A stretch of 63,281 nt of DNA, the filler included, from Actinomycetota bacterium (GTDB taxonomy: Bacteria; Actinomycetota; Acidimicrobiia; IMCC26256; VFJJ01): the NCBI GenBank assembly GCA_009886115.1. It is 4 parts of 4 records of this genome, joined end to end, with 100 filler letters (N's around TTAATTAATTAA, not from the genome) between each part and the next. Parts side by side here need not be neighbours in the genome. Positions count along the whole stretch, not along the records: positions 36,864 to 56,191 come from VFJJ01000104.1; 3 more parts are not named here. One strand, 5' to 3'. The translations under genes and the position numbers were made by a program. The notes under the pieces are model-generated. The model saw only the letters and a list, made by a program, of their open reading frames with translations. It made no database searches and had not been told where the DNA came from. Of the stretch, positions 36,764-55,765 are shown in pieces. Positions within the stretch are counted from its first letter, which is position 1. Every line of letters starts with the position of its first letter.

Positions 36764-36863
36764 NNNNNNNNNNNNNNNNNNNNNNNNNNNNNNNNNNNNN
36801 NNNNNNNTTAATTAATTAANNNNNNNNNNNNNNNNNNNNNNNNNNNNNNNNNNNNNNNNNNNN
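36764..36863. other. Artificial contig linker
   Basis: N-run with TTAATTAATTAA. Confidence 0.98.
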
Positions 36864-36924
36864 CCCCGGTCACCAGCACCAGGGCCAGGGCCAGAGCCGC
36901 CGTCGTCATCCTTCTCTGCTGCAT
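36864..36924 (-). CDS. Start of a secreted protein or lipoprotein, truncated by gap
   Basis: MQQRRMTTAALALALVLVTG signal peptide; GAGGGAG upstream. Confidence 0.55.
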
Positions 36925-37261
36925 CAAGATCGCTCCCTCGTCGATGGATTCCCCGGTCGGTCGATTGCGGGCGTTCGTCACCCACTGCAACCGACGCACC
37001 ACGAGCATCCGCGGGTGACAACCATCTGGCGAGGGCGCCACCCCTCCGATACGAGGGATGCCAGCCGAACCTGGCGCTGGGTGGCTGCGCCCGGTACCTG
37101 TGGTCCTGACGATGCGGCGTGCTGCGCCTCCTCTGGGCCGAGGGCGGCGATCCGGGCCTGGGCCTGAGCCGGCAACGAGCGAAGTACGTCGTCTTGGCCC
37201 CACTTCGACCCTGGGGGCTGCACCCTCGCCCCGATCGACGCGGCGTGGTCTGACCCACACC

Positions 37262-37744
37262 ATGCACGCACCACAACGGCCGGCCGGCCCTGTCGGTCTG
37301 CTCGTCCGCTCCGAGCTCCGGCGCCGGTGGCCGACGTTCGTGGTCGTCGGGGTCCTCTTCGGCCTCGTCGTCGGGATCGGTCTCGGGTGCCTCGCCTGAG
37401 CGCGGCGGACGGCGTCGCTGTTCGATCGACACCTGCAGGCATCCTCGGCCTCGCATGTCGAGATCGACCCGGGCACACCCACCGCCGCCGTCGACCGGGC
37501 GATCCGGGCGCTCCCGCACGAGGTCGAGGCCTCGTACTGGACGACCATCTCGGCCTATCCACTGAAACCCGACGGGACACTCGACGAGTCGCTCATCGGG
37601 ATCCTGAGCTTCACGGCCGGCGGACGCTACCTCGACATGGATCGCGTCGCGGTGGCCTCGGGTCGGCGGCTCGATCCCGCCCGCGCCGATGAGGTCATGG
37701 TCAACGAGGTGCGGGCCGGGTTCACCGGCACCCAAACACCATGA
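37262..37744 (+). pseudogene. FtsX/MacB-like permease remnant (internal TGA at 37397-37399, truncated)
   Basis: LLVRSELRRRW...GLGCLA*ARRTASLF...GRRLDPARADEVMVNE parallels the N-terminus of the permease at 39920..42328. Confidence 0.8.
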
Positions 37745-37832
37745 CACCGGTGGTCGTCACGAGCACCGTGAGCAGCACGACGGTCGGCCATCCGCTCCTG
37801 AGGTCGGCTCCTCAGCCGGTACAGGACCGTCG

Positions 37833-39923
37833 TCACGACGTGACGTGTTGGGGCGTCACCGGCCCCGGCCCCGAGGACGCAGCGAGTGGGATCGAGCCGG
37901 CGACGCGGGTGCCGACGCCGGGCGCTGACGAGACGGTGAGGGACCCGTCGAACGCGCCGAGGCGGTCGGTCATGTTGACGAAGCCATGGCCGACCCGGCC
38001 CGCAGGAGCCGACGATGGGGAGGACGTGGCGGGCTCGAACCCGGCGCCGTCGTCGGAGACCTCGAAGCGCAACGCGGGACCGGCGTCCTCCCACAACCGC
38101 ACGCACGCGCGCGCCCCGGCCCCGGCGTGCTTGCCGGCGTTCTGGAGCGCCTCCAGGCAACAGAAGTAGACGGCGGCCTCGACCTCGCTCGGGTACCGGC
38201 CGATCCCGTCGAGCTCGACCGACGTGTCGAGCGCCGCCCGGGTCGCGGCAGCCGGGAGGGCCTCGGCCAGCCCGCCAATCATCAGCAGCGGGGGGAAGAT
38301 CCCGTGCGCCAGCGCTCGCAGCTCGGTGATCGAGTCCTGGAGGTCGGAGCGAAGCTCGTCGATCAACCCCATGGCATCGGCGGTGTCGCCATCCTCGATG
38401 GAGTCATGCGCCAGGCGCAGCTTGACAGCCATGGCCACCAGGTGTTGCTGGGCCCCGTCGTGCAGGTTGCGTTCGAGCTTGCGGCGCTCGGCGTCACCGG
38501 CGGCGACGATGCGGCTCCGTGAGTCACGCAGCTCGACGTTGCGGGCCTGGAGCTCCTCCAGGGAAGCCTGGAGCGCCGAGTCGAGCTGCACATTGTGCAG
38601 GGCCAGGCCGACCTGACGGGCCAGCTCGGTGAGCACCCGATCGCCCTCGTCGTCGAATGGCTCCCCGTCGGCCCGGCGTTCCAGCACGATCAGACCGAGC
38701 AGCTTGCCGGCGTGGGCGATCGGGGCCACCCGGACGGTCTGGGCGTCGCGACCCTCCAGCAGCGACGCCACCCAGATCTCGACCCAGGTCCCGCCCGAGA
38801 CCCCGGCCCGGGCCACCACGGGCAGCTCGCGCTCGCCGACGACCAGCGCCGGCGGGTTCCGGTGCGGGACGCCGGCGGCGAGCTCGTAGTGGCCGTCGCC
38901 CCCCGTCCAGATCTCCGCAGAACGCAGCAGCAGGCTCTTGCGCAACGACTCGACCAGCTGCAGCAGCAGCTCCTCCATGGGGATCGCCCGGGTGAGCCGC
39001 GAGCCGAACGTGCGGATCGTCTCGTCGGGCGCGACCCGCTCGCCGTAGACGAGCCGGTTCGCCTCGTCCTCGAGCCGGGAGCGGGCCCAGGGGTAGGCCA
39101 GCGCGATGACTCCCGCGGCGCACATCGACAACAGCAACATGCTCCGCTCGCTGTCGTCGGGACGGCGGCCCAGGCCGAGCAGCACGACCCCGTAGACCGC
39201 GACCACGAGCACCGTCAGCCCGGCCAGCGACACCGAGTGCGTGAGGAGACGGTCGACGCGGGCAGCCAGGCGGGGGCTGGTGCCGGCGACGAGCGCCGCC
39301 GCCACGAGCCCGCTCGCACCCACCGCGACCGTTTCCTCATGGTGGGGCCAGTCGGCGAGCAGGCTGAGCGCCACGGTCACGAGCACCGCCTCGGCGGCCA
39401 GCGCGATTCCCCACCCGACCCATTGGAGCCGTCGACGGTCGACGGCGTTCGAAGTCCGGTACCGGCCGTTGGCCGCAGGCAGCGCTATCGCGGCAAGTGC
39501 CACGGCCAGCAGAACGAACGGCCACCGGCGGATCGACGCCGATCCGTCGGCAGTGTCGGAGGCCGCGGCGATCGTCACCGCGCCCACGGCTGCGGCGATC
39601 AGGTACCCGGCCGCCGCCAGGCGGCGGTGCGCTCGGCTGACGAGCTTCCCGTCGGGCAGGGCCAGCAGCACGTGCATCGCCGCCGCGGTCATCAGCGCGC
39701 CGACCCCGCCGGCGCCGGCCAGCGCGACGTCCGCGGCCGAGCCCGTCGGCTCGCCAAGCTCGCGCCAGGCCTGGGTCGCCAACCCGATCCCGCCGAAGAG
39801 CGTCAGCACCACGATCACGCGCCCCATGGGCTCGGCAGGCCGGCGTCGCCAGAGCACGAGCCCGGCCGCCAGCCACGCGCCGGCGACCGCGATGCCTGCG
39901 ACGAGCGCGGAGGTCATCGTCAC
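37833..39923 (-). CDS. Membrane sensor histidine kinase (multi-TM, GAF-like, HisKA_3, HATPase)
   Basis: About 8-9 TM segments; ERRKLERNLHDGAQQ H-box; EALQNAGKHA; VSDDGAGF; GHGFVNMTDR. Confidence 0.95.
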   Translation of the reverse strand: MTMTSALVAGIAVAGAWLAAGLVLWRRRPAEPMGRVIVVLTLFGGIGLATQAWRELGEPTGSAADVALAGAGGVGALMTAAAMHVLLALPDGKLVSRAHRRLAAAGYLIAAAVGAVTIAAASDTADGSASIRRWPFVLLAVALAAIALPAANGRYRTSNAVDRRRLQWVGWGIALAAEAVLVTVALSLLADWPHHEETVAVGASGLVAAALVAGTSPRLAARVDRLLTHSVSLAGLTVLVVAVYGVVLLGLGRRPDDSERSMLLLSMCAAGVIALAYPWARSRLEDEANRLVYGERVAPDETIRTFGSRLTRAIPMEELLLQLVESLRKSLLLRSAEIWTGGDGHYELAAGVPHRNPPALVVGERELPVVARAGVSGGTWVEIWVASLLEGRDAQTVRVAPIAHAGKLLGLIVLERRADGEPFDDEGDRVLTELARQVGLALHNVQLDSALQASLEELQARNVELRDSRSRIVAAGDAERRKLERNLHDGAQQHLVAMAVKLRLAHDSIEDGDTADAMGLIDELRSDLQDSITELRALAHGIFPPLLMIGGLAEALPAAATRAALDTSVELDGIGRYPSEVEAAVYFCCLEALQNAGKHAGAGARACVRLWEDAGPALRFEVSDDGAGFEPATSSPSSAPAGRVGHGFVNMTDRLGAFDGSLTVSSAPGVGTRVAGSIPLAASSGPGPVTPQHVTS

Positions 39924-42328
39924 TCCGCTCTCAGCACGTCGGCTGGGCGGAGACGTCGGACGTCATGGAGCGGGCGTGCCGCAGCGAGCCCGGCCAACGC
40001 GAACGCGCCCGGGACGGCCAGCCACACCCAGCTCGGGTACGCGATCGACGGGACGACGGTGACCCGCTCGGCCAGGTTGTAGACGACGATGCGGGCGGCG
40101 ACGAGCCCGACGGGCAGACCGATCGCCAGTGCCAGCGCAGCGACGAGCGCCGCCTGCCAGACCAGTGCCCGGCTGAGCTGGGCCCGGCTCACACCCAAGG
40201 CCCGATGGATCGCCAGCTCCCTCCGTCGCTGCCGGGTCGCGGTATGCATGGAATAGACCAGCGCCGCCGCGCCGAGAGCGGCGAGGAAGATCGCCAGGGC
40301 CGTGGGGACGCCACCGAGCTCCCGCAGGTTCTCGACGTTGGCCGGTGGCTCACGATCGGCCGAGAAGCCCGGGTACTCGTCTGCCAGCGCCTGCAGTGTC
40401 TCTTCGTCGCGGGCGTCGGGGCCCAGCCGCACGAGCACGGACGAGACGTCGAGATTGCCACCGACGAGGAGGTCGGCCCCGGGCCCGTCGAGCACCAGCC
40501 CCCGGGCCGAGTGGTCGTTGCCCGGGCTCACCACCACCCCTACTACGACGGCCTCCACGACCCCGATGTTGGTGAGCGTCACCGGCGAACCGATTCCGGC
40601 CCCTACTGCGTCGAGCAGATCGGGCCCGAGCGCGATCTCGGCCGGCCCGCTCGGGGCCCGACCCTCGAGGAGGACCGGGGCGATGGAGCCCTTGTACGCC
40701 TCGAACACGGTCGGGTCGACCTCCACGGTCGCCTCACCGCTCGGGCCGGCGAGGGTCGTGCCGTAACCGTTCTCCTGGGCCGTGGCGTCTCTGGCTGCCG
40801 TGACGGCATCGAAGCGCGGATCGGCCACGATGGCCTCGATGTCGAGCACCGATCCCAGCTCGTTCTGGATCGTCGCGTCGAAGTCGGCGCCGTACAGGCG
40901 TGGGGTGGCGAGCACTTGGTCGATCGAACCGTCGACGAGCCCGACGGCGATCACCCCGACGATCCCGAGCGCGAGCCCGACCACGCCCGCCCGTATGGGC
41001 GATCCGGAACCTCCGCTCGAGCGCCGGGCTCCCAGGTTCAACCCCACGACACGCGCCGGAGTACCGCCGGCCAGCCGTGCGAGCCATCTCGAGCTGCGGG
41101 CCGGGCTCGCTGTGGCCTGACGCCGAGGCCCACGCGCCCGGGCCGTCCACGACGCCACCACGATGCTCACCACCACGACACCAGCCAGCAGGACGGTCGC
41201 TCCCGTGACGAGCACCGAGCCGTCGAACTCTCGACCGGGGTAGGGCTCGGCCCTCCCGGCCAGACCCACCGGAAGCGCCGCCGAAGCGAGCCAGGCCGTC
41301 CCGACGGCCCCGACGGCACCGAGGGCGAGCACCGGCGCCACGAGCGCCAGCCCGGCACCGGCCTCCTGCCGGCGGGTGATACCGAGCGCTCGACGGGCGT
41401 CGCGTTCGGCGGCTGCCAAGGCCATCTGACGCGCCAGTGCCTGGATGACCACCACGGATCCGGCGATCGCGCAGGCCAGCGCAGCCACCCCGAGCACCCC
41501 GACCTGCAGGCCGATCGCGTCAGCGACCCGGGCCTCGAAGTCCTCCGACGGCTGAACGATCGCGCTGTCACCGAAGCTCGCCCGGAGCCGCTCGATCACA
41601 GCGTCGCGTGCCGCCGGCCTGGCCCGAACCCGGATCCCGCACTCGCAGCGCCACATGTCGGGCCCGTACGCCTCGAGGAAGCCGGGCCCGACCGCCAGGA
41701 ACGGATCGGGGTTGTCGGACACATCCTCGATACCACGGAACACGCCGACGATCGTGACTGTGGGGCGGGGCCCCGCGGGGGGCCCGGGGTCGACCTGCTC
41801 GTCGATCGCCCGCGACTCGTTGAACACCTCGATGAGGAACTGCTCATCCGTCTTCGACCACAGCGCAACCTGATCACCGGGCCCCTTACCGAGCTGATCG
41901 GCCATGGCCTCGTTGACGACGATCTCGTCGGCCGCGGCGAGGTCGAGGTTGCGGCCGTCGATGATGAACACGTCGTCGTCACCGGAATCGCCAGCTCTCT
42001 CCGCGATGCCGACCGAGAAGAAGTTCTCCGACGGCTGGGGGGCCAGACCGAGCAGCACGAAGGCGTAGGCCGAGGTCACGTCGGGATCGGCGACGATCCG
42101 CTCGAACGCGTCGTCGGGCAGCGTCGAGACGAAGTCGGGAGTGAGCACCTCGATGTTGGGCTCGGCCGTGGCCGCGGCCCCCCGGGTGAACGCCGTGTCG
42201 GTCCGCCTCGCGCCCGCGATCGCGGCGAGCACCGCGCCGCCCGAGATCGCGATCAGGAGCGCGACCGCGGCCAGCGAGCCGAGCCGCCGTCGCCACTCGG
42301 CGCGCACCCAGAGCCAGACGGCGCTCAT
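39920..42328 (-). CDS. FtsX/MacB-family ABC permease (two FtsX domains)
   Basis: RAEWRRR, GARRTDTAF, DEIVVNE, RRALG, RRRELAIHRALG, RPADVLRAE; stop overlaps kinase start. Confidence 0.92.
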   Translation of the reverse strand: MSAVWLWVRAEWRRRLGSLAAVALLIAISGGAVLAAIAGARRTDTAFTRGAAATAEPNIEVLTPDFVSTLPDDAFERIVADPDVTSAYAFVLLGLAPQPSENFFSVGIAERAGDSGDDDVFIIDGRNLDLAAADEIVVNEAMADQLGKGPGDQVALWSKTDEQFLIEVFNESRAIDEQVDPGPPAGPRPTVTIVGVFRGIEDVSDNPDPFLAVGPGFLEAYGPDMWRCECGIRVRARPAARDAVIERLRASFGDSAIVQPSEDFEARVADAIGLQVGVLGVAALACAIAGSVVVIQALARQMALAAAERDARRALGITRRQEAGAGLALVAPVLALGAVGAVGTAWLASAALPVGLAGRAEPYPGREFDGSVLVTGATVLLAGVVVVSIVVASWTARARGPRRQATASPARSSRWLARLAGGTPARVVGLNLGARRSSGGSGSPIRAGVVGLALGIVGVIAVGLVDGSIDQVLATPRLYGADFDATIQNELGSVLDIEAIVADPRFDAVTAARDATAQENGYGTTLAGPSGEATVEVDPTVFEAYKGSIAPVLLEGRAPSGPAEIALGPDLLDAVGAGIGSPVTLTNIGVVEAVVVGVVVSPGNDHSARGLVLDGPGADLLVGGNLDVSSVLVRLGPDARDEETLQALADEYPGFSADREPPANVENLRELGGVPTALAIFLAALGAAALVYSMHTATRQRRRELAIHRALGVSRAQLSRALVWQAALVAALALAIGLPVGLVAARIVVYNLAERVTVVPSIAYPSWVWLAVPGAFALAGLAAARPLHDVRRLRPADVLRAE

Positions 42329-42509
42329 CCTCGCGATCTCCTCACGGCCACCATGGCATCAGTAGACGCCCCTGCTCGGTGACGTGCAAGGAAGCCACCA
42401 CACCCACCCCGGTGTGGTTGTCACCACCGGCACGACCAGCCCACGCACGACCAGGAGTGAGTACAGCCCCACATGCCCCGGACAACTCACTCCTGCTCGG
42501 CTCGTGGGT

Positions 42510-43398
42510 CGGGACGTGGACGCTGTCGGGCCCGTCCTTCAGCCGCACGAGCGATCCCGCGCCGTACACGAAGGCACCCGATCCCTCGCTCCTCCACCAG
42601 GCCGGGGTCGTGTACACGACGAGTGGACGGGAGATCGTGAGCAGGGCCGAGGGCTCCTCGGGAACGAGATCGACGAAATCCCGAACGACCCCCGTCACCA
42701 GGGCCGGCCGGCCGGGTCGTCGTGGTGGTTCGCTCCCGTCGCTCGCGGCGTCGGGTTCGTCGACGGAGTACGTGCTGAGCACCGTGGTGTCGCCGGGGCT
42801 GAGCCCGAGGTCGCCCGCCAGGCCTTCGTTGATCGCGATCTCACCGGCCGCGTCGAGACGGGGGAGCCGACCCCGCAGAACCGGCGGCGCGCCGGTGCCG
42901 GCCAGCCCGCCGTCGAGATCGGCCGAGATGAGGGTCCGCAGCGGAAGACCCGGGCGCGACGATTCGGGGGTGAGGGGCCGGCTGGGGCCGGGGCGGCTCC
43001 GGCCGGGCCAGCACCGACCTGAGCAGCAATCGACCCCACATACGACCCGGAACGGCCCACCGCCTCCACCTCGGGCACGCTGCGGAGGAGATCGGCGGTC
43101 GCCGCCGTCGCCTGGTCGTCGAAGCACTCGTCAACCCTCAGCTGGAGACTGACGTCGAGCTGCTCGACGGTGAAGTCCGGGTTGCACGCGATCGCCACGA
43201 CATCGCCCGTGCGGCGATGCTCGGAAAAGCGCTCCAGGGCCGAGTCGCTCCGGCGCGACGCAGCGGTCGCCGCCATGGCGTGCTCGCGGCCAGGCCCGCC
43301 AACAGCGCGAGGAAGATCGAGGCCCGGACGTTGGATGCCAGCAGGCGCACGGCCCGCAGTCGAACGGCGGCCCCGGGCCCGCGCAGCACCTGTATCAC
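42510..43398 (-). pseudogene. Second FtsX-like permease remnant (two frameshifts, truncated)
   Basis: GTG overlaps MBL stop; three frames join as ...IFLALLAGLAAS / AASRRSDSALERF... / GRLPRLDAAGEIAINEGLA...VTGVVR. Confidence 0.75.
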
Positions 43399-44273
43399 CC
43401 GAGCCGGATCTCGCAACCCTCGCGGGCCGCGCTCACGCTCACGCCGACCGGCGCGGCTGCGGCCAGGCGGCGCTCCAACGCCTCGACCTCGGCGTCGGTT
43501 CGGCTGGGGTCGTGGTGGAACAACAGCACCTGGTGCGCTCCGGCGACCTCGGCCAGGCCCAGCGCGTACTCGGCGGCAGCATGGCCGAACGGGCCTCGGG
43601 CGGGAAGCTCGTCGGCGGTGTACTGGGCGTCGTGCACGAGCAGGTCGACCCCATCGGCGAGTGCCATGGCCGCGGCGTGGTGGGCCCCCACACCGCGGGG
43701 TCCGAGACCGAGATCCTGGGGCGCGTGGTCGGACAGATAGGCCATGGTGCTGCGCCCGTCGGTGATCCGCAACCCCATGGTGCGGCCGCCCTTGTGCGGG
43801 ATCTCGCGCGCCGTGACCGTGAAGCCCTCGGCCGCGAACGAACCTTCCCCGTACGACTCGAAGGTCCAGTCGCCCCGCAGCTCCGAAGGCGTGATCGGGA
43901 AGTGCGGCGGTCCCATGGCCCGGGCGAGCAACGCCTCCGAGTCCTGCGGACGGGTGCCGTGCGTCGCCCCTGGACCGGCGTCCTGCTCGGGGAGCAGCAG
44001 TCGCACGCGCGCGTCGTCACGGTCGCCGGCCTTGAAGAACGGGAGGCCCTGGGTGTGATCCCAATGGAGATGACCGAGGACGATCGTCCCCCGAAAGGGG
44101 GCGCCGTCGAGCAGAGCGCTCACCCTGCGCACGCCCGTCCCGGCGTCGAGCACCAGGACCGGTACGCCCTCGTCGTGGGCGATGGCGATGCAGGAGGTGT
44201 GGCCTCCGATCCCCAGGAACTCACTCCCGCACAGAGGCGTCGAGCCCCGGACCCCGCAGACGTGGACCCTCAC
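43395..44273 (-). CDS. MBL-fold metallo-hydrolase, candidate cNMP phosphodiesterase
   Basis: GVRGSTP, GGHTSC, LDAGTG, HLHWDH, PHKG, SDH, HDAQY, FGH, FHHDP. Confidence 0.9.
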   Translation of the reverse strand: MRVHVCGVRGSTPLCGSEFLGIGGHTSCIAIAHDEGVPVLVLDAGTGVRRVSALLDGAPFRGTIVLGHLHWDHTQGLPFFKAGDRDDARVRLLLPEQDAGPGATHGTRPQDSEALLARAMGPPHFPITPSELRGDWTFESYGEGSFAAEGFTVTAREIPHKGGRTMGLRITDGRSTMAYLSDHAPQDLGLGPRGVGAHHAAAMALADGVDLLVHDAQYTADELPARGPFGHAAAEYALGLAEVAGAHQVLLFHHDPSRTDAEVEALERRLAAAAPVGVSVSAAREGCEIRLG

Positions 44274-45364
44274 GAACCGGTCGTCCCGAAGGCCGCCAGC
44301 TGCTCCTCGCGCCGGTGCCCTTCGGCCAGCGCAGTGAGTTGCTCCCTCGTGAGGTCGCCTGCTCCAAGCTCGGCGACCCGGCAGGCGGTGACCGCGCTGA
44401 CGGTGGACGTGCGGAGCCCCTGCTCGAGGATGGCCCGCTCGCCCAGCACGGCGCCGGGGCCGAGCTCAGCCAGGAGTTGCCCGTCGACATCGACCGCGAC
44501 GACGCCGTCCATCACCACGAACATCGAGTCGCCGGGCTGGCCCTGCTCGACGAGCCGGTCGCCCACCTTGAGGCGGCGGAACCGGGCCTGATGTCCGGGA
44601 GCGAGCAGCTCGGCCGACAGCGTCCGTTCGAGGGCGGTCTCGATCTCGGTCACGAACGCCTTGGAGTCGAGGTTGCCCCACGGGGTGTTGCGCCCGAAGG
44701 CTCGCTTCCACCAGTGCTTGAAGTCGGTGAGGCCGCTCTTGGATGCCAGCCGACCGGCCGTGTCGTAGACCCAGTGACGGGGGAACGGGCTGGCGCCGGT
44801 GAGCTCCGAGTCGGTCCGCCCGTCGGCGTGCACGGTGAGCGTGAGCGTCGTCCAGGCGACGGGGGCGCGCCACTGCACGAACGGCGGCCGGCGCACGGTG
44901 CGGGGCGCGGGCACACCGGTGCGACCACCGGCTGTCTGAGTGAAGCGCACCCAGCCGTCGCCCCACTCGGGTTCCGACCTCCGGTCGGGGAGGGCGACGG
45001 CGGTGACGATCCACGCTGCGCCACCGAGCTTCACCCTGGTGGCGCCGATGCGGCCCTCGCCGCCGTAGCCGGCATCCACGATGCGTCCGTCGACGACGTC
45101 GATCCAGGCGGCGAGGTGATTGGCGAAGCGGAAGCGATCGGCCAGGCGCAGCTCGTCGAGGCGGGTCACGACCGAGGCCGCGTCGGTCGCGGGGCCCCCG
45201 GCGTCGCCCTGGCCCTCGGCGGCGTCGGTCGGGGGGCCACCGAGATCATCGGGTGGCACCTCGTCATAGTGGAACGTACCCATCCGGAAGGGCAGCTTCG
45301 GCAACCCGGAGATGGCTTCCATCGGGATCCAGGAGATCGATGTGACGGCAGCTTGATGACGCAT
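44270..45364 (-). CDS. Cyclic nucleotide-binding domain protein with unassigned N-terminal domain
   Basis: Start at MRHQAAVTSISWIP; C-term LVEQGQPGDSMFVVMDG...LGPGAVLGERAIL...RTSTV; no CRP HTH. Confidence 0.88.
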   Translation of the reverse strand: MRHQAAVTSISWIPMEAISGLPKLPFRMGTFHYDEVPPDDLGGPPTDAAEGQGDAGGPATDAASVVTRLDELRLADRFRFANHLAAWIDVVDGRIVDAGYGGEGRIGATRVKLGGAAWIVTAVALPDRRSEPEWGDGWVRFTQTAGGRTGVPAPRTVRRPPFVQWRAPVAWTTLTLTVHADGRTDSELTGASPFPRHWVYDTAGRLASKSGLTDFKHWWKRAFGRNTPWGNLDSKAFVTEIETALERTLSAELLAPGHQARFRRLKVGDRLVEQGQPGDSMFVVMDGVVAVDVDGQLLAELGPGAVLGERAILEQGLRTSTVSAVTACRVAELGAGDLTREQLTALAEGHRREEQLAAFGTTGS

Positions 45365-45496
45365 CGTGTGACCGTACGGATCATCGGCCGGCGCGAACAG
45401 GGCGCAGGCCGGGCAACCGGTGGGGGTGCTGGCCCCACCCCGTTCTCCGGGCCTGCCCCCTGTTCTGGGCGAGCCCCATGCGCTCCAATGGTCATC

Positions 45497-46858
45497 ATGG
45501 AGACGGCCGTCATCACGGTGTACCTCGCCGACGACAACATCATCGTGCGTGAAGGCGTCCGGGCCATGTTGGCCCGGGCCAAGGACATCGAGGTGGTCGG
45601 GGTCGCCGACGACTACGACTCGCTCGTGGCCGGGGCCGAGGCCGCCGCACCGCAGGTCGTCGTCACCGACATTCGCATGCCCCCGGCGTTCCAACGCGAG
45701 GGGATCGACGCGGCGAAGCTCATCCGCAAGCGCCATCCGGGGACGGGCGTCGTGATCCTCTCGCAGTACGACGATCCCGACTATGCCGTGGCGTTGCTCT
45801 CCGAGGGGGCGTCGGGGTACGCGTACCTGCTCAAGGACCGCATCGCCGAGGGCGACCAGCTCGCCAGCGCCATTCGCACGGTGGCCCAGGGCGGCTCGAT
45901 GCTCGACCCGGTGATCGTGAACGCCTTGGTACGTCCGGTGACGCGGCCGGGGGAGCTGGCGCCCGCCGACGAGGAGCTGCTCGGTCTCGTGGCTGCCGGA
46001 CGCCCGCTGAAGGCGATCGCGCTCGCCCGAAGGACGACCGCGGCCGCCGTGGCGGAGGACGTCGAACGGCTCTTTCGCGTCCTCGCCGACGGAGCCAGCT
46101 CTGGCCAGCAGGGGGCTCTGCGGCGCCTGCGGATGCTGCACGAGGCAATAGTGGAGCGCGAGGAGCGCAGCGAGTCGCTGAGCCGCTTGCTGCCCGGCGG
46201 GGTGGCCGAACGGCTCCTGCGTGGCGGCAAGGCGATCGGCGAGAGCGAGGAATGCATCGTGACCGTGCTGATGTCCGACATCCGGGGCTACACGACGATC
46301 GCCGAGCATGCCGAGCCGGCCCAGATCGTGGCCCAGCTGAACGTGCACCGGGCCGAGATGAACCGGGCCATCCTCGACCAGGCCGGAACGGTGATGCAGT
46401 ACGTCGGCGACGCCGTGATGGCCGTGTTCGGCGCGCCCGAGCCCTGCCCCGACCATGCCGAACGCGCCCTCGCTGCCGCCATCGCCATGCACGCGGCTCA
46501 AGCCACGGTGAACGAGCGCTGGTGTGCGGAGGGCCTACCGCCCTTCGGGCTCGGGATCGGGCTGTCGACGGGGAGTGTGGCCGCCGCGATCATGGGTTCG
46601 GAGGAGCGCCTCGAGTACACGGTGATCGGCGATGCCGTGAACCTCTGCAACCGACTCCAGCAGCTCGCGTCGCCAGGGCAGACCGTGTGCTCGGGTCCGC
46701 ACTGGCGTGAGCTGGCCACCGTCCCGCCCGATCACGAGGAGTTGCCGCCGCAGCTCGTCAAGGGGCGCGACACCCCGGTCGTTGCCTACCGATTCCCGGT
46801 GGCGACTTTCGCGACACCAGTCCCGTCGAGCACGAGCCCGGGAGGCGACACCGCATGA
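45497..46858 (+). CDS. Receiver + degenerate LuxR-HTH + class III nucleotidyl cyclase fusion
   Basis: LADD, VTDIRMPP, LSQY, YLLKDR receiver; MSDIRGYT, QYVGDAVMA, GIGLSTG, YTVIGDAVNLCNRLQ cyclase. Alternative start 45488. Confidence 0.93.
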   Translation: METAVITVYLADDNIIVREGVRAMLARAKDIEVVGVADDYDSLVAGAEAAAPQVVVTDIRMPPAFQREGIDAAKLIRKRHPGTGVVILSQYDDPDYAVALLSEGASGYAYLLKDRIAEGDQLASAIRTVAQGGSMLDPVIVNALVRPVTRPGELAPADEELLGLVAAGRPLKAIALARRTTAAAVAEDVERLFRVLADGASSGQQGALRRLRMLHEAIVEREERSESLSRLLPGGVAERLLRGGKAIGESEECIVTVLMSDIRGYTTIAEHAEPAQIVAQLNVHRAEMNRAILDQAGTVMQYVGDAVMAVFGAPEPCPDHAERALAAAIAMHAAQATVNERWCAEGLPPFGLGIGLSTGSVAAAIMGSEERLEYTVIGDAVNLCNRLQQLASPGQTVCSGPHWRELATVPPDHEELPPQLVKGRDTPVVAYRFPVATFATPVPSSTSPGGDTA

Positions 46859-47610
46859 GTGACGATCTGGCGATCGAGGCCGTCGGCCTGTACCGCACCT
46901 TCGAGGCCGAGACGGCGCCGGTCCGCGCGTTGCGGGGCGCCGACCTCACCGTGAGACGCGGCGAGTTCGTGGCGGTCATGGGGCCCTCGGGATGCGGGAA
47001 GTCGACGATGCTCAACGTCGTCGCCGGCCTCGACACGCCCGACGAGGGCGAGATCTCGGTGGCCGGCCAGTCGCTCGTCGGCCTGTCCGACGATCAGCTC
47101 GCGCTCATGCGCCGAAAGCACGTCGGTATCGTGTTCCAGTTCTTCAATCTGCTCGAAGGCATGACCGTGCAGGAGAACGTCGTCATGCCCGCGCTCATCG
47201 CCGGCGTGAAGCGCAAGAAGGCCGAAACCCGCGCTCGCGACCTCCTCGACCTCCTGGGCCTGCCCGACAAGGCCCGCCAGGCCCCGGGGGTGCTCTCGGG
47301 CGGGCAACGTCAGCGTCTGGCCATCGCCCGGGCCCTGGCCAACGAGCCGACGATCGTGCTGGCCGACGAACCCACCGGCGCGCTCGACTCCGAAGGCGGC
47401 GAGGAGATCCTGGAGCTGTTCCGCCGCCTCCACGACGGCGGTCAGACCATCCTGCTCGTCACCCACGACCAGCCGGTCGCCGACGCCGCCGAACGGATCG
47501 TCCGCATGCGCGACGGTCGGGTCGTCGACGAGGGCCACGGGCCAGGCGACACGTCCTCAGGGGGAACCGACCCGATGACCGTCGGCACCACCAGGGAGCG
47601 CTCGGCGTAG
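46855..47610 (+). CDS. ABC transporter ATP-binding protein (LolD/MacB-like)
   Basis: GPSGCGKST, VFQFFNL, LSGGQRQR, LADEPTGALD, VTHD; ATGA overlap with cyclase gene. Confidence 0.96.
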   Translation: MSDDLAIEAVGLYRTFEAETAPVRALRGADLTVRRGEFVAVMGPSGCGKSTMLNVVAGLDTPDEGEISVAGQSLVGLSDDQLALMRRKHVGIVFQFFNLLEGMTVQENVVMPALIAGVKRKKAETRARDLLDLLGLPDKARQAPGVLSGGQRQRLAIARALANEPTIVLADEPTGALDSEGGEEILELFRRLHDGGQTILLVTHDQPVADAAERIVRMRDGRVVDEGHGPGDTSSGGTDPMTVGTTRERSA

Positions 47611-47723
47611 CACCGGTGTGAGGGATCGCTCGAGTTCCTTGCGCGAAGTCGGGTTCGTGCGCGAGCGTCGCCCGCAGCAGTGCGGCGTCAACGAGCGCAA
47701 GTCACCACGACTTCGGAGGATCC

Positions 47724-48860
47724 ATGGAATTCGGCATCTTCGTCATGATGAACATCCTGGGTCAGGCAGCCCACGACCCCGAGGTCGAGCACCGGACCCT
47801 CAAGGAAGAGCTCGAGACGATCCGCTCGGCCGACCAAGCGGGCTTCAAGTACATCTGGGTGTCGGAGCACCACTGCCTGCCCGAGTATTCGCACCTCTCG
47901 GCGAACGAGTCGTTCATCGCCTACGCGCTGGCGATCACCGAGAAGATCCACGTCGGCTCGGGGATCTTCAACCTCAACCCGATCGTGAACCATCCCGTCC
48001 GCATGGCCGAGCGGGTCGCCATGCTCGATCACCTCGGCGAAGGCCGCTTCGAGTTCGGGACCGGCCGCGGCGCCGGCTCCTGGGAGGTCGGCACCTTCAA
48101 CCTCGACACGTCCAAGACCAAGGAACCGTGGGAGGAGGTCGTCTGGGAGCTCAAGAAGATGTGGGAGTCGCGCGACTACTCGTTCGACGGGAAGTACTTC
48201 CAGACGCCGGGTCGCAACATCCTCCCCAAGCCCTACGGCGGCGGCACGACACACCCGCCGATGTGGGTGGCGGCCGGCAACCCGCCCACCTTCGAGAAGG
48301 CGGCCCGTCACGGGATGGGTGTCCTGGGCTTCAACGTGGAGCCCGCACAGGCCATGAAGGCCCGCATCGAGGCGTACCACGCGGTGATCGCCGAAGCCGA
48401 GCCTGTTGGCCAGTTCATCAACGACAACGTGATGATCAGCTCCAGCATGCTGTGCATGGAGGACGGCAAGCTGGCCCGGCAGGTCTACCGCGACGCCATG
48501 ATGCACTACTTCTTCCCGCTCCTGTTCCTCTACCACGACACGTTCCCCGTCCCCGAGGGTGCGACCCGCTGGCCCGACATCCCGGGCGAGTTCACGCTCG
48601 ACGACGTGGAAGCCATGATCGACGGCGGCCAGATCCTCTGCGGCGATCCCGAGGAGGTGCGTCAGCAGCTCGACGCCATGCAGGACCTCGGCATCGACCA
48701 GCTCGTCTTCGGCGGGCCCAACGGCATCCCCTTCGAGATCCAACGGGCCTCGAACGAGCTCTTCGCCAAGAAGGTCATGCCCCACTTCGACAAGCAGCCC
48801 GACGTGTGGCGCACCGACACCATGCGCTACGGCCCCGCGGGCAAGCCCTCGGCGAAGTAG
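47724..48860 (+). CDS. LLM-class flavin-dependent oxidoreductase
   Basis: MEFGIF, WVSEHH, HPVRMAERVAMLDHL, GRFEFGTGRG, HPPMWVA. Confidence 0.93.
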   Translation: MEFGIFVMMNILGQAAHDPEVEHRTLKEELETIRSADQAGFKYIWVSEHHCLPEYSHLSANESFIAYALAITEKIHVGSGIFNLNPIVNHPVRMAERVAMLDHLGEGRFEFGTGRGAGSWEVGTFNLDTSKTKEPWEEVVWELKKMWESRDYSFDGKYFQTPGRNILPKPYGGGTTHPPMWVAAGNPPTFEKAARHGMGVLGFNVEPAQAMKARIEAYHAVIAEAEPVGQFINDNVMISSSMLCMEDGKLARQVYRDAMMHYFFPLLFLYHDTFPVPEGATRWPDIPGEFTLDDVEAMIDGGQILCGDPEEVRQQLDAMQDLGIDQLVFGGPNGIPFEIQRASNELFAKKVMPHFDKQPDVWRTDTMRYGPAGKPSAK

Positions 48861-48889
48861 CGCCGGTGGGATCGGTAGCCTGACGCCCG

Positions 48890-49600
48890 ATGCCGAACCT
48901 GACGACGATCGCCTTCGACGGCGACGACACCTTGTGGCACAACGAGACCGTGTTCTCGATGACCGAGGAGCGCATCACGACGCTGCTCGCCGACCACATG
49001 GAGCCGGCCGAGCTGTCGAAGCGCCTGCTCGCCACCGAGACGGCCAACCTCCGCCTCTACGGCTACGGCGCCAAGAGCTTCATCCTCTCGATGATCGAGA
49101 CGGCGATCGAGGTCACCGACGGACGAGTCAGCACCGAACACCTGAAGGAGATCCTCGACGTCGGCAAGGAGATGCTCGACCATCCCGTCGAGCTGCTCGA
49201 GGGGGTCGAGGAATGCGTCAAGACCCTGGCCGACGACGGGCGCTACCGCCTCCTGGTGATCACCAAGGGCGACCTGTTCCACCAGGAGTCGAAGGTGGCG
49301 CGGTCGGGGTTGGCCGAGTTGTTCTGGAAGGTCGAGATCGTGGTCGAGAAGGACGTCGCCACCTACCGGCGCATCATGACTGCCCACGGGATCGACCCGA
49401 CCGAGTTCGCCATGGTCGGCAACTCGTTGCGGTCGGACGTGATCCCCGTGCTCCAGATCGGCGCGACCGCCGTCCACGTCCCGTACCCGTTGGTCTGGGC
49501 CCACGAGCACGTCGACCCGACCACGGTCGCCGAGTTGCGCTGGCACGAGGTCGGATCACTCGCTGCCGTCCCGGCCCTTCTCGATGAGCTGCGCCGCTGA
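48890..49600 (+). CDS. HAD-family hydrolase
   Basis: FDGDDTLW, ITKGD, MVGNSLRSD. Confidence 0.92.
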   Translation: MPNLTTIAFDGDDTLWHNETVFSMTEERITTLLADHMEPAELSKRLLATETANLRLYGYGAKSFILSMIETAIEVTDGRVSTEHLKEILDVGKEMLDHPVELLEGVEECVKTLADDGRYRLLVITKGDLFHQESKVARSGLAELFWKVEIVVEKDVATYRRIMTAHGIDPTEFAMVGNSLRSDVIPVLQIGATAVHVPYPLVWAHEHVDPTTVAELRWHEVGSLAAVPALLDELRR

Positions 49601-49640
49601 CGCTCTCTCGGTCGTCAGCGAGAACCAAGGAGGCGACGAC

Positions 49641-52010
49641 GTGGACGGGCACGAGTTCGGCGGGGTGATCGGGCGCTACTGGTACGAGTCGACCCCGTGG
49701 TGGCCACCGGAACCCCGTCCCCCCGTTGGGGTTCCCAACGTGGTGATCGTCCTCCTCGACGACGTGGGCTTCGCCCAGCTCGGCTGCTACGGCTCCGACA
49801 TCGACACGCCGACGTTCGACGGCCTGGCCGGTGGTGGCCTGCGCTACACGAACTTCCACACCACGAGCCTGTGCTCGCCGACGAGGGCGTGCGTGCTCAC
49901 CGGCCGCAACCACCACGCGTGCGGCGTGGGCCGGATCGTCGACCTCCCCCTGGGCTTTCCCGGCTACGACGGCCGCATCCCGAAGAGTTGCGGCCTGCTG
50001 TCCGAGATGCTGGTACCACACGGGTATGCCGCCTACGCCGTCGGCAAGTGGCACCTCACCCCGGAGGACGAGTGCCACCATGGCGCGTCGCGAGCGCGGT
50101 GGCCCCTGTCGCGCGGGTTCGAGCGCTTCTACGGGTTCCACGGCGGTGAGACCCACCAGTTCGCACCGTCGCTCGTGTACGACAACCATCAGATCCCGCC
50201 GCCACGATCCTTCGCCGACGGCTACCACCTCACCGAAGATCTCGTCGACAAGGCGGTGGAGTTCCTCGGCGACCTGCGCTCGATCGACGACGTCAAGCCG
50301 TTCCTCCTGTACTTCTGCCCCGGGGCGTGCCACGCGCCCCACCAGGCCCCGGCCGACTGGCTGGCCCGCTACCGGGGACGCTTCGACCGGGGTTGGGACG
50401 TCGCTCGCGAGGAGACGTTCGCTCGCCAGGTGACCATGGGGTTGCTGCCGTCGGGCACCGTGCTCTCGCCCCGGCCCGAGTGGGTGCCATCGTGGGACGA
50501 GCTCACGCCCGACCAGCGACGGGTGAGCGCTCGCTACATGGAGGCCTTCGCCGCCATGCTCTCGCACACCGACCATCATGTCGGGCGCCTGCTGCGCTTC
50601 CTCGAGGAGACGGGCGATCGCGACAACACCATCGTGCTCCTCATGTCCGACAACGGCGCCAGCTCCGAGGGCGGCCGGAACGGGTCGGTGAACTTCGCCC
50701 ATCTGTACAACGGCGGCGGCATGCGCCTGGCCGATGTCGTCGACCGCATCGACGACATCGGCGGTCCTCGCTTCCACAACAACTACCCGTGGGGCTGGAC
50801 CGTCGCCGGAAACACGCCGTTCCGTCGTTGGAAGCGCGAGGTGCACGAGGGCGGCGTGGCCGATCCGCTCGTCGTCCACTGGCCGGCCGGGATCGCTCCC
50901 GAGAGCCGGGGCGGCAACCGTCACCAGTACGTGCACGCCATCGACGTGGTGCCGACGATCCTCGAGATCACGGGCCTCCCGGTTCCGGCCGTGCTCAACG
51001 GCGTTGAGCAGAAGCCCGTCGATGGGGTGAGCTTCGCCCACACGTTCACCCCGGAGGCCGCCGACCCCAGCGAGGCGACGGGCGTCCCGAGCCGTCATCA
51101 CACCCAGTACTCCGAGATGTTCGGCTGCCGCGCCTTGTACCACAAGGGTTGGAAGGCCGTGGTGTACCACCAGATCCAGCGGCCCGACGAGAACTTCCAC
51201 GAGGACGTGTGGGAGCTCTACCACGTCGAGTCTGATCCGTCGGAGTGCAACGACCTCGCGGCGGAGCGGCCCGATCTGCTCAGGGAGATGATCGACCGCT
51301 GGTGGGTCGAGGCTGCGAAGAACGATGTGCTCCCGCTCGACAACCGCCCGATCTCGTCGTCTGTGCGCATCCGGCCGCCGTTGCTCGAAGCCCGCAACCG
51401 TTACGTGTACTGGCCGAGGACGGCGACGGTCCCCGAGAACGTCGCCGCCGACGTGAAGAACCGCTCCCACACCATCACGGCCCACGTCGACCTCGGCGTC
51501 GACGTCGCCGGAGGGGCCGGAGGGGCCGGAGGGGCCGGAGGGGCCGCGGTGGCCGCAGGGGCCGCAGGGGGTGTCCTTTGTGCACAGGGCAGCCTGCTCG
51601 GCGGGTGGACGCTGTTCGTGCTCGACGGGCACCTCACCTACGTTCACAACCTCACCGGCGACGAGCAGCACCGCATCAGCGGACCCTTACCCCCCTTGGC
51701 TCCCGGCCACCACACGCTCGCGTTCGCCTTCGAGCGCACCGCGGAGCACCAGGGGATCGGGCGCCTCAGCGTCGACGGCATCGAGATCGCGACCGGTCCG
51801 ATTCCACGCTTCACCCCCGTGGCCTTCTCGGTCACCGGGATCGGGCTCTCGTGCGGCGACGACGCCGTGCTCGCCGTCGTCGACGACTACCGGACACCGT
51901 TCCCGTTCGACGGCCCGCACGCGAGGCTCCTCCGGGTCGTGATCGAGGTCGAAGGCGATCGTCACCTCGACGCCGAGGCCGAGGCCGAGATCGCGATCAT
52001 GGTCCAATAG
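49641..52010 (+). CDS. Arylsulfatase (formylglycine-dependent)
   Basis: LLDDVGF, LCSPTR (CxPxR), GKWHL, HAPH, SDNGAS; AAGGAGG Shine-Dalgarno. Confidence 0.94.
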   Translation: MDGHEFGGVIGRYWYESTPWWPPEPRPPVGVPNVVIVLLDDVGFAQLGCYGSDIDTPTFDGLAGGGLRYTNFHTTSLCSPTRACVLTGRNHHACGVGRIVDLPLGFPGYDGRIPKSCGLLSEMLVPHGYAAYAVGKWHLTPEDECHHGASRARWPLSRGFERFYGFHGGETHQFAPSLVYDNHQIPPPRSFADGYHLTEDLVDKAVEFLGDLRSIDDVKPFLLYFCPGACHAPHQAPADWLARYRGRFDRGWDVAREETFARQVTMGLLPSGTVLSPRPEWVPSWDELTPDQRRVSARYMEAFAAMLSHTDHHVGRLLRFLEETGDRDNTIVLLMSDNGASSEGGRNGSVNFAHLYNGGGMRLADVVDRIDDIGGPRFHNNYPWGWTVAGNTPFRRWKREVHEGGVADPLVVHWPAGIAPESRGGNRHQYVHAIDVVPTILEITGLPVPAVLNGVEQKPVDGVSFAHTFTPEAADPSEATGVPSRHHTQYSEMFGCRALYHKGWKAVVYHQIQRPDENFHEDVWELYHVESDPSECNDLAAERPDLLREMIDRWWVEAAKNDVLPLDNRPISSSVRIRPPLLEARNRYVYWPRTATVPENVAADVKNRSHTITAHVDLGVDVAGGAGGAGGAGGAAVAAGAAGGVLCAQGSLLGGWTLFVLDGHLTYVHNLTGDEQHRISGPLPPLAPGHHTLAFAFERTAEHQGIGRLSVDGIEIATGPIPRFTPVAFSVTGIGLSCGDDAVLAVVDDYRTPFPFDGPHARLLRVVIEVEGDRHLDAEAEAEIAIMVQ

Positions 52011-52020
52011 CCGGCCCTCC

Positions 52021-52075
52021 CCCGTTCTTTGTGTGCCGCCCGGTGCTGGGAGCGGCCCTGGACACAAAGAACGGG
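52021..52075. repeat. Intergenic element with 14-bp terminal inverted repeats
   Basis: CCCGTTCTTTGTGT ... ACACAAAGAACGGG. Confidence 0.7.
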
Positions 52076-52122
52076 AGCCGGCCCACCCAACTGCCATTGC
52101 ACCCAGGAGACGGAGAGCAGCC

Positions 52123-53694
<1,572 letters not shown>

Positions 53695-53733
53695 CGGCCC
53701 AGCCGAGCCGACAGGGGACAGCACAGCACCGAC

Positions 53734-54531
53734 ATGGACAACACGGGACGGGTGGTCGTGGTCACCGGCGGGACGCGGGGCATCGGGCGAGGCATCGCCC
53801 AGTGCTTCCTCGACTCCGGCGCCGAGGTGATCGTCTGTGCCCGACGGCCGCCCGACACCCCGGTGACGAGCTCACCCGGCGCACCTCGGGAGCGCGGCGA
53901 AGGCGGCGAGCGCGGCGAGCGACAGGACGCCCGCAGCGCGCGGTTCGTCGCCGCCGACGTCCGTGACCCCGAGCAGTTCGCGGCCGTCCTCGACGCCGCC
54001 GAGGCCGTCACGGGACGGCTCGACGTGCTCGTGAACAACGCGGGAGGCACCCCGGCAGCCGACCCGGCCCGGGTGAACGCACGCTTCCACCGCTCGATCA
54101 TCGACCTCAACCTCGTGGCGCCGCTGCTGTGCGCCACCATGGCCTACGAACGGATGCGGGCTCGGGAGGTCGTCGGCGGCTCGATCGTGATGATCTCCAG
54201 CGTCGTGACCCGGGTGCCCAACCCCGCCGCCGCCTCGTACTCCGCAGCCAAGGCCGGTCTCGATTCGCTCACCGAGTCGCTCGCGGCCGCCTTCGCGCCC
54301 CACGTCCGCCTGAACGCCGTGTCGCCGGGGCTCATCGCCACCGAACTGCTCGACGAGACGTACCCGCCCGAGGCGATCAACAGCATTCCCATGGGCCGCT
54401 TCGGAACCCCGCGCGACATCGGCCACGCCTGCCTCATGCTCACCGACCCGGAACGGGCGGCCTACATCACCGGAGCCACCCTGGCCTGCCACGGCGGCCG
54501 CCCGTTGCGCTGGCCCGTCGACCAGCCCTGA
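53734..54531 (+). CDS. SDR family oxidoreductase
   Basis: TGGTRGIG, NNAG, YSAAK. Confidence 0.93.
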   Translation: MDNTGRVVVVTGGTRGIGRGIAQCFLDSGAEVIVCARRPPDTPVTSSPGAPRERGEGGERGERQDARSARFVAADVRDPEQFAAVLDAAEAVTGRLDVLVNNAGGTPAADPARVNARFHRSIIDLNLVAPLLCATMAYERMRAREVVGGSIVMISSVVTRVPNPAAASYSAAKAGLDSLTESLAAAFAPHVRLNAVSPGLIATELLDETYPPEAINSIPMGRFGTPRDIGHACLMLTDPERAAYITGATLACHGGRPLRWPVDQP

Positions 54532-54570
54532 AGCCCGCTACGGATGGGTCCGCCCAACGAGCAGGCCCGC

Positions 54571-55719: not shown

Positions 55720-55765
55720 CGCCGGTCGCCCGGTCCGTCCGATGCTGCTCGTTCCGCCCCCACGA

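Follow-up and report, generated by a model that had tools for sequence, protein, structure and literature searches.

A divergent cluster of signalling genes

The DNA analysed here, referred to throughout as the window, is a stretch of 63,281 nt from the draft genome of an Actinomycetota bacterium of the class Acidimicrobiia (assembly GCA_009886115.1). Our subject is a divergent gene cluster at positions 37833–47610, which is predicted to link a membrane histidine kinase to the synthesis, the binding and, probably, the hydrolysis of a cyclic nucleotide. The window is assembled from four contigs joined at runs of N (approximate positions 25101–25200, 36764–36863 and 56192–56290; 264 N in total), so arguments from gene neighbourhood stop at these joints; the entire cluster lies inside a single contig of 19,328 bp (window 36864–56191). 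At a G+C content of ~70%, spurious open reading frames (ORFs) are plentiful. Reading frames were picked by the G+C content of third codon positions (GC3), and genes were called from the ORF listing, GC3 and Pfam matches.

On the plus strand, a gene for a response regulator-cyclase of 456 amino acids (aa; 45488–46858) is followed by one for an ATP-binding cassette (ABC) ATPase of the MacB/LolD/FtsE type (251 aa; 46855–47610). The minus strand encodes a protein with a cyclic nucleotide-binding domain (CNBD), the predicted receptor (364 aa; 44270–45364), a metallo-β-lactamase (MBL)-fold hydrolase (292 aa; 43395–44273), the remnant of a second FtsX permease (42345–43130), an intact FtsX-family permease of the MacB type (802 aa; 39920–42328) and a sensor histidine kinase (696 aa, GC3 0.92; 37833–39923). 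Stop and start codons overlap by 4 nt between permease and kinase (39920–39923), between CNBD protein and MBL (44270–44273) and between cyclase and ATPase (46855–46858). All six proteins and the overlaps reported in a first-pass annotation are present at the place it gave; the gene set and the location stood, and the coordinates of the CNBD gene and the receiver-cyclase were corrected to those above. Long ORFs on opposite strands overlap each other at this point (44270–46501 on the minus and 44315–46858 on the plus strand), and codon bias together with family alignments puts the true starts at 45364 for the CNBD protein and at ~45488 for the cyclase, separated by a divergent intergenic region of 123 bp. 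What is apparently the database entry for the CNBD gene is 350 aa long, with a start 14 codons downstream; we favour the 364-aa form because M1, R2, T8, W12, I13 and P14 are conserved in the family.

The receiver-cyclase is composed of a NarL-type receiver (Pfam Response_reg, 61.2 bits, E = 1.3e-16), a segment resembling the LuxR helix-turn-helix (HTH), a conserved helical linker and a class III nucleotidyl cyclase domain (Guanylate_cyc, PF00211, 75.2 bits against a cut-off of 21.9, E = 6.4e-21), which opens after the linker with the usual LLPGG-x-AE motif. Residue conservation was read from 57 receiver-cyclases, that of the window and those of 56 related loci. D16, the phospho-acceptor D61, S92 and K116 of the receiver are found in 57/57 sequences and D15 in 55/57. 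The metal-binding D264 and D308 and the transition-state residues N385 and R389 of the cyclase are likewise invariant (57/57), their register matches that of the solved structures 1wc0 and 2w01, and the catalytic domain is ~65–73% identical across classes. NCBIfam models of the NarL, MadR and MctR type cover residues 9 to 188–197, all below their cut-offs. Behind the receiver a LuxR-like scaffold is visible, its recognition-helix positions are variable, and Pfam GerE was not detected in the protein. The combination of a NarL-type receiver, recognized as such from the start, with an HTH-like segment still carried ahead of the cyclase fits descent from a DNA-binding regulator.

The best solved matches to the catalytic domain are two cyanobacterial class IIIb enzymes, 2w01 (E = 1.4e-28) and CyaC of Spirulina/Arthrospira (1wc0, 1wc1; E = 7.8e-26 with 1wc0). 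Entry 2w01 bears the label 'adenylate cyclase' and is presumably the guanylyl cyclase Cya2 of Synechocystis. CyaC shares with our protein a class III catalytic domain downstream of a receiver, and its metal-binding Asp pair, Thr, Asn and Arg are in register with those of the window; phosphorylation of its proximal receiver activates the cyclase, according to the relevant passages of PMC3009899. CyaC differs in uniting a kinase, two GAF domains and two receivers with the cyclase in one hybrid protein, whereas the window encodes a NarL-type receiver with an HTH-like segment, a separate membrane kinase and an invariant Gln in place of the Lys of CyaC.

This Gln304 (57/57) is the first of the two base-selecting positions and aligns with Lys of CyaC and Glu of 2w01; the second, Thr378 in the window, is Thr in 43 sequences and Ser in 14, and aligns with Thr of CyaC and Gly of 2w01, an enzyme that also differs in having no receiver. 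Lys plus Asp (Thr in class IIIb) is the adenylyl-specific pair, Lys/Thr marking the use of ATP and Glu/Gly that of GTP, and the mycobacterial Rv0386 uses a Gln/Asn pair with mixed activity. An alternative substrate-binding mode of Rv0386 is described in the part of PMC3466318 that deals with it. The adenylyl-specific signature is absent here, Gln replacing Lys throughout, and the specificity residues of pyrimidine (cCMP and UTP) cyclases, as far as they are set out in the pertinent section of PMC11224242, differ as well. With so unusual a pair the product, be it cAMP, cGMP or another nucleotide, is not readable from the sequence; cAMP is our most likely candidate.

The divergently encoded CNBD protein combines a conserved all-beta N-terminal domain (approximately residues 1–232) with a C-terminal CNBD, its sole Pfam domain (cNMP_binding, PF00027, 59.6 bits against a cut-off of 27.5, E = 2.9e-16), whose fold matches that of other CNBDs. 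The phosphate-binding cassette is kept, G308, E309, R310 and R318 being invariant and T319 present in at least 90% of sequences. The N-terminal 232 residues are more conserved than the CNBD and contain many invariant polar residues. A model of this domain built from 27 sequences (predicted local distance difference test 81.5; predicted template modelling score 0.79) is an all-beta sandwich with few helices, for which Foldseek returned one convincing solved match, the uncharacterized Bacillus anthracis protein 3c5p (E = 1.7e-4). Foldseek with the full-length model retrieved CNBDs only, the sequence profile of the N-terminal domain matched nothing meaningful in the PDB, the ESM Atlas yielded unnamed clusters with scores below 0.9, and a literature search for BAS0735 found no papers. 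A profile search of 1.84 billion representatives gave 1431 clusters; 16 proteins scanned from these (12 of unusual length and four short ones) contained at most an extra CNBD, an Mpo1-like or a TrkA_N domain, and most contained nothing further. Among the proteins scanned the domain is almost always fused to one CNBD, occasionally to two.

A CRP/FNR-type transcription factor was considered for this protein and rejected: the CNBD is C-terminal, no HTH family matches, and the 21 bits scored with the NCBIfam CRP model lie far below its cut-off of 266. Its earlier description as a non-CRP cyclic nucleotide (cNMP)-binding protein therefore holds. Neither a TIR domain nor a transmembrane (TM) segment was found in it by Pfam or hydropathy. 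A complex prediction for the CNBD protein with the MBL protein returned a score of 0.00, which gives no verdict and speaks neither for nor against binding.

The MBL protein matches Pfam Lactamase_B_2 (PF12706, 50.9 bits against a cut-off of 27, E = 2e-13). Its HxHxDH motif is intact, and H68, H70, D72, H73, H160, D182, H183, H214, D215, H253 and H254 are invariant in 25 sequences. By its profile matches the protein is assigned to the RNase Z/atypical class II phosphodiesterase branch; it is a candidate cyclic-nucleotide phosphodiesterase that probably removes the nucleotide of the module.

The kinase has ~8 hydrophobic, presumably TM, segments within its first 280 residues, followed by GAF (E = 4.7e-5), HisKA_3 (42.2 bits, E = 1.2e-10) and HATPase_c (37.2 bits, E = 4.5e-9) domains, the latter two above the cut-offs and placing it among the HisKA_3 histidine kinases. 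The permease, which has TM segments, matches Pfam FtsX in two stretches (62.6 bits, E = 4.5e-17) and contains two large non-TM, extracytoplasmic stretches (approximately residues 38–276 and 466–582). The ATPase (ABC_tran, E = 2.4e-36) is best matched in NCBIfam by MacB, LolD, FtsE and DevA, all below their equivalog cut-offs (N-terminal part of MacB, E = 1.3e-67; LolD, E = 3.5e-64). Judged by these features, permease and ATPase qualify as a MacB-type (type VII) ABC transporter.

Bce/Lia-type modules of Firmicutes likewise join a two-component system to a MacB-type ABC transporter. The window resembles them in encoding a membrane-embedded sensing kinase together with an ATPase and an FtsX permease, and its kinase and receiver weakly match the LiaS, MadS/MadR and NarL models, far below the NCBIfam cut-offs. 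It differs in the ~8-TM kinase with a GAF domain, in a receiver that would drive a cyclase, and in the CNBD receptor and MBL protein encoded in the same cluster. The transporter may be either a co-sensor or a target of the system.

Conservation of the neighbourhood

A scan of one genome per prokaryotic species confirmed at least 591 CNBD-family loci. The window proteins were compared by tblastn with the best 80 of these; as best-scoring relatives they bias the fractions given below upwards. The 80 loci stem from Acidimicrobiia, Thermoleophilia-type Solirubrobacterales, Streptosporangiaceae, other Actinomycetota and Dormibacterota. An orthologous receiver-cyclase is found in 59/80, in 52 cases diverging from the CNBD gene at a distance of no more than 1.2 kb, in six downstream on the same strand. 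The MBL gene occurs in 53 loci, immediately downstream of the CNBD gene in 47 of them. The ABC ATPase (35/80; 69–83% identity) follows the cyclase and is never seen without it, and all but one of the 48 loci with an orthologue of the GAF/HisKA_3 kinase (45–66% identity) also have the cyclase. Cyclase, MBL, ATPase and kinase are present together in 26 loci. Short contigs explain some of the misses: four cyclase-less loci have < 1.5 kb of upstream sequence, and three MBL-less loci < 0.9 kb downstream. FtsX ORFs, placed variably in the cyclase arm or the CNBD arm, were seen in 32/80 loci and in 28 of the 34 from which a whole ATPase ORF was extracted; in loci such as L001, L036 and L041 two or three permease genes stand in tandem.

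The proteins of the module are 55–70% identical and syntenic across classes, into Dormibacterota, and this gene set was met again in dozens of independent assemblies, some of them closed chromosomes. The cluster is therefore real and conserved in many soil Actinomycetota and their relatives, and not a local accident; co-occurrence in other genomes, on which the first-pass proposal had been staked beforehand, was found. The CNBD family is large: 7704 of 8000 scored candidates are relatives, typically of 335 aa and with 55–64% identity over 97% of the query. Both the receptor and the cyclase family comprise > 7,000 sequence clusters, nearly all from uncultured soil or peat organisms and carrying generic database names.

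As a second sample, 400 other genomes spread over the phylum were searched with three of the proteins, at E ≤ 1e-60 for the receiver-cyclase and ≤ 1e-40 for the CNBD protein. Of these genomes, 50 have the cyclase and 45 the CNBD protein; 20 have both, and in 14 of the 20 the two genes lie on one contig within ~3 kb. Leaving out four unpublished genomes (G148, G120, G239 and G018) gives 48, 41, 18 and 13 respectively. MBL orthologues with 51–61% identity are present in 19/400 genomes and stand directly beside the CNBD gene in 12 (11/16 without the unpublished G268, G120 and G148), while a lower tier of 30–44% identity, in 54 further genomes, represents the wider family. The orthologous MBL is thus largely specific to the CNBD neighbourhood. 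Since related genomes are not independent, we draw no statistics from these counts.

In the typical layout a regulator gene and a lone-receiver gene converge on the kinase, ATPase and receiver-cyclase genes, which are read in the opposite direction with the cyclase first; on the other side of the divergent region the CNBD gene is followed by those for the MBL protein, a FAD/amine-oxidase-like protein and an FtsX permease. A canonical NarL-type regulator with receiver and GerE domains accompanies 37/80 loci, and a lone receiver of ~130 aa stands beside the kinase in 43/80. In the Dormibacterota loci examined, the cyclase is accompanied by one to three kinase paralogues, a lone receiver and a regulator, and ABC/FtsX and MBL genes are absent, so neither of these is essential to the core. 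Kinase, receiver-cyclase and CNBD protein make up the constant core, to which MBL and transporter are frequently added as accessories.

In the window, the kinase and one permease come behind the MBL gene, the second permease is decayed, and neither a canonical regulator nor a lone receiver is found on the contig. Parts missing there exist elsewhere in the genome: contig C23 (51199–52362) encodes a NarL-type regulator and lone-receiver pair, contig C220 (180–5245) a second FtsX permease and a kinase 79% identical to that of the window together with a lone receiver, and contig C219 (5275–6693) a homologue of the FAD/amine-oxidase-like gene. These data do not bear out two terms of the first-pass annotation. 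'Self-contained' goes too far for a module whose transporter and MBL protein are accessories, missing from the Dormibacterota loci examined. So does 'rewired': relatives, and this genome on another contig, keep the canonical regulator and lone receiver, which points to a branched pathway.

The FAD/amine-oxidase-like gene (~476–515 aa) occurs in 32/80 loci, usually straight after the MBL gene (for example L008 11840–13270, L021 8496–9953 and L069 11043–12590), and is absent from the contig of the window; its product may contribute to the output or be one of its targets. In some relatives (L055 1117–9789, L048 2–8016, L006 4267–8687 and L013) two to four paralogous multi-TM GAF kinases are encoded in tandem next to the CNBD gene, in L055 with no receiver-cyclase nearby, and in L043 a CHASE2-cyclase lies near the CNBD gene in place of the receiver-cyclase.

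A palindromic element between the divergent genes

The intergenic region between the CNBD and cyclase genes contains an imperfect inverted repeat (45395–45465) with arms of 32 nt, 78% complementarity and a 7-nt centre, CCAGCAC, which folds at −55 and −56 kcal/mol on the two strands (z = −3.2 and −2.8). The homologous regions of relatives contain a related element of 70–80 nt, its core ~75 nt ahead of the CNBD start. The conserved blocks on the CNBD-sense strand are AAAGGGGGCAGG, GGGGGTG-CYAG-...-CACCCC and CACCACCCTT. A regular expression for the core found 49 distinct sites in the 80 loci (1.36 Mb), compared with ~12 in block shuffles: 32 upstream of the CNBD gene, ten between regulator and lone-receiver genes, four within 250 nt of an FtsX ORF start and three elsewhere. 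Further copies of the element lie at L007 8383–8461 and L078 7430–7450. A tighter core pattern occurs at three places in the genome under study, one of them at the end of the regulator gene and before the lone receiver (C23, ~51860). An nhmmer profile built on the core lacked sensitivity and did not recover the copy in the window.

The core forms a perfect palindrome, GGTGCTAGCACC, at some sites, which suits a dimeric LuxR-type regulator. Several features speak against a simple operator: G-run and C-run are separated by anything between 4 and 7 nt, bases of the flanking stem seem to co-change in several species, and the window and L007 form the same long hairpin despite differing outer stems. 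Against a structured RNA, RNAalifold found no consensus pairs in 37 intergenic regions aligned with MAFFT; folding energy showed no strand preference (central hairpin, 21 versus 14 of 37; whole element, 18 versus 17 of 35); and no Rfam 15 family matched, permissive thresholds giving only spurious hits of miRNA-like hairpins. A scan of 36864–48000 found no promoter or terminator. We consider an operator somewhat more likely than an RNA, and either way the element probably places the CNBD/cyclase region in one regulon with the regulator/receiver pair and some permease genes.

Candidate pathway, alternatives and remnants

We favour, as the probable account of the cluster, a two-component module whose signalling branches, with a cyclic nucleotide as one output. 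The GAF/HisKA_3 kinase, which is predicted to cross the membrane several times, would sense a signal, maybe jointly with the MacB-type transporter as in Bce/Lia-type envelope modules, and phosphorylate Asp61 of the NarL-type receiver-cyclase. Phosphorylation would promote the dimer that a class III cyclase requires, leading to a 3′,5′-cyclic nucleotide, most likely cAMP, with cGMP or mixed products also possible. The nucleotide would bind the C-terminal CNBD of the divergently encoded receptor, whose conserved N-terminal domain would act as the effector, and the co-transcribed MBL-fold phosphodiesterase would reset the signal. In most relatives this kinase probably has two further targets, a canonical NarL-type transcription factor and a single-domain receiver.

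Several points weigh against this account. Gene content, the conserved neighbourhood and intact catalytic, phospho-acceptor and metal-binding residues were observed directly; every biochemical step, as well as the signal, the nucleotide and the action of the effector, is inferred. Profiles, the ESM Atlas, the 1.84-billion-protein search and the literature offered no function for the N-terminal domain of the receptor. The similarity of the MBL protein to the characterized YhfI is marginal (6KNS, E = 0.0024), and its motif reads GHLHWDH, a Gly standing where the signature has Thr or Ser. The association of cyclase and CNBD gene is strong, yet not obligatory: in one family the CNBD protein is present in 17/21 genomes, often in several copies, with the cyclase in 1/21 and the MBL protein in 0/21, and in another a 45–50% identical receiver-cyclase occurs in 18/22 genomes and the CNBD protein in 0/22. 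The absence of regulator and lone receiver from the contig of the window, and of ABC/FtsX and MBL genes from Dormibacterota-type loci, counts on the same side, as do the top-scoring nature of the 80 loci, the relatedness of the genomes sampled and the state of the assembly (a draft of 224 contigs, 95.6% complete, with 3% contamination).

The alternative that withstands the evidence best accepts the link between cyclase and receptor and denies the MBL protein its role as eraser: the MBL protein, a phosphodiesterase of the RNase Z or another kind, would have some other substrate, and the CNBD protein would perhaps control it. We give this a minor share of the probability. The closest sequence relatives of the protein are indeed RNase Z/ELAC enzymes (E ~1e-11), far ahead of YhfI, the NCBIfam model 'cyclic nucleotide-degrading phosphodiesterase' scores 25.9 bits against a cut-off of 400, the residue ahead of HxHxDH is Gly in the window, and many CNBD-family loci do without an MBL gene. 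The RNase Z branch is, however, grouped with the proven cAMP phosphodiesterases Rv1339 and CpdA, under the signature [T/S]HXHXDH, in the section of PMC9293780 devoted to these enzymes. In our family the first position of this motif varies between Gly, Ser and Thr. Orthologues of at least 51% identity stand directly behind the CNBD gene (12/19 genomes; 47/80 loci), often with overlapping or near-touching stop and start codons, and the protein, with ~280 aa, does not reach the length of the matched RNase Z chains (280–320 aa).

The atypical class II cAMP phosphodiesterases (Rv1339 of Mycobacterium tuberculosis, CpdA of Corynebacterium glutamicum and YfhI/YhfI of Bacillus subtilis) share with the MBL protein the PF12706 domain, HxHxDH and further metal ligands, as well as the weak profile match to YhfI and a closeness to RNase Z like that described in the same section of PMC9293780. 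They differ in that the similarity is distant, in the Gly of the window's motif and in being stand-alone housekeeping enzymes, whereas the MBL protein here is tied to the CNBD gene.

A second alternative, which we judge improbable, sees in the cluster a classical Bce/Lia-like system for the envelope or for antimicrobial detoxification, with transcription as its output through the NarL-type regulator and the palindromic operator; the receiver-cyclase would act via its HTH-like segment or as a phosphate sink, and cNMP synthesis would be minor or vestigial. HisKA_3 kinases and MacB-type transporters are a common pairing. The frequency of the canonical regulator and the lone receiver among relatives, the recurrence of the palindromic core in the intergenic regions of the module and the LuxR-like scaffold kept in the receiver-cyclase would all fit. 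The invariance of the catalytic residues and the high identity of the cyclase domain across classes, in contrast, argue for an active enzyme. Further, the positions that vary in the HTH-like segment are those of the recognition helix, the most constant neighbour of the receiver-cyclase is a dedicated CNBD receptor, and the contig of the window lacks a canonical regulator.

An anti-phage abortive infection system of the Pycsar kind, in which infection would induce a cNMP, a CNBD effector would kill or arrest the cell and the MBL protein would provide self-protection, is very improbable. The list of cyclase, CNBD and MBL does resemble PycC, CNBD-bearing effectors and Apyc1, Pycsar too pairing a class III-type cyclase with a CNBD-bearing partner, and PADLOC models for PycC match the cyclase domain (best, 72.9 bits) and those for PycTIR the CNBD. 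The generic Pfam models score just as high on these domains, so that the match is one of domains only, and membership of Pycsar was rejected, the CNBD protein lacking the TIR or TM part of such effectors. The cyclase is under predicted two-component control, and its base-selecting residues are not those reported for cCMP/UTP cyclases in the section of PMC11224242 cited above. Deep, vertical-looking conservation with synteny across classes is unlike patchy defence islands, and the genes 3′ of the ATPase, where Pfam found no permease, are metabolic (a luciferase-like oxidoreductase, a HAD hydrolase and a sulfatase). Signalling rather than defence, as the first-pass annotation preferred, is what these comparisons support. 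Finally, that the genes are unrelated and came together through chance or faulty assembly, as a draft window of four contigs with locally rearranged permease fragments might suggest, is next to inconceivable, because the whole cluster lies on one contig and its recurrent synteny in independent assemblies excludes chance.

Returning to the branched cyclic-nucleotide module, we also entertain a more far-reaching version, to which we grant a small chance. In it the Gln/Thr-Ser cyclase would make cGMP, a mixed output or a pyrimidine cNMP, the BAS0735-like domain would be a new cNMP-gated enzyme or switch acting on the cell envelope or the MacB-type transporter, and the palindrome of 70–80 nt would be a structured RNA leader. 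If this is true, soil Actinomycetota and Dormibacterota would possess a second-messenger pathway that has so far gone unrecognized, complete with writer, reader, eraser and cis-regulator.

Most known outputs of two-component systems are transcriptional, and most of what is known of cyclic-nucleotide signalling in Actinomycetota comes from mycobacteria. A full-text search of the open-access literature for combinations of receiver-cyclase, CNBD, phosphodiesterase, FtsX and kinase found no description of the module. What is new here appears to be a variant of known signalling parts, with an unusual cyclase specificity pair and a receptor domain annotated without function. The module would be a widespread and compact relay from a kinase to a cyclic nucleotide, with a dedicated receptor and a probable phosphodiesterase. 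It offers a tractable handle on an effector domain of no known function and a class III cyclase with an unstudied Gln/Thr base-selecting pair, and hints at a possible link between second messengers and MacB-type transporters.

Remnants of related genes lie within and beyond the cluster. The permease remnant at 42345–43130 (minus strand), proposed as such in the first-pass annotation, indeed matches an FtsX profile built here (E = 2.4e-10); it has a weak codon bias (GC3 0.77 versus 0.63 for second positions) and no Pfam family. Convergent with the kinase gene, a fragment at ~37019–37744 on the plus strand corresponds to the N-terminal part of an FtsX-type permease in two frames: 37019–37396 matches the FtsX profile (E = 2.7e-6), and residues 5–146 of a permease of L001 match 37292–37717 in tblastn. 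The region 37019–37744 has no Pfam family and is probably a pseudogene. On contig C16 of the same genome (~9530–11107; loci L082 and L083) we observed a decayed second copy of the cyclase/CNBD/MBL core, in which the receiver has internal deletions, only ~80 residues of the receptor's N-terminal domain are left, in a different frame, and the CNBD runs in frame into the last two thirds of the MBL protein, which no longer has HxHxDH.

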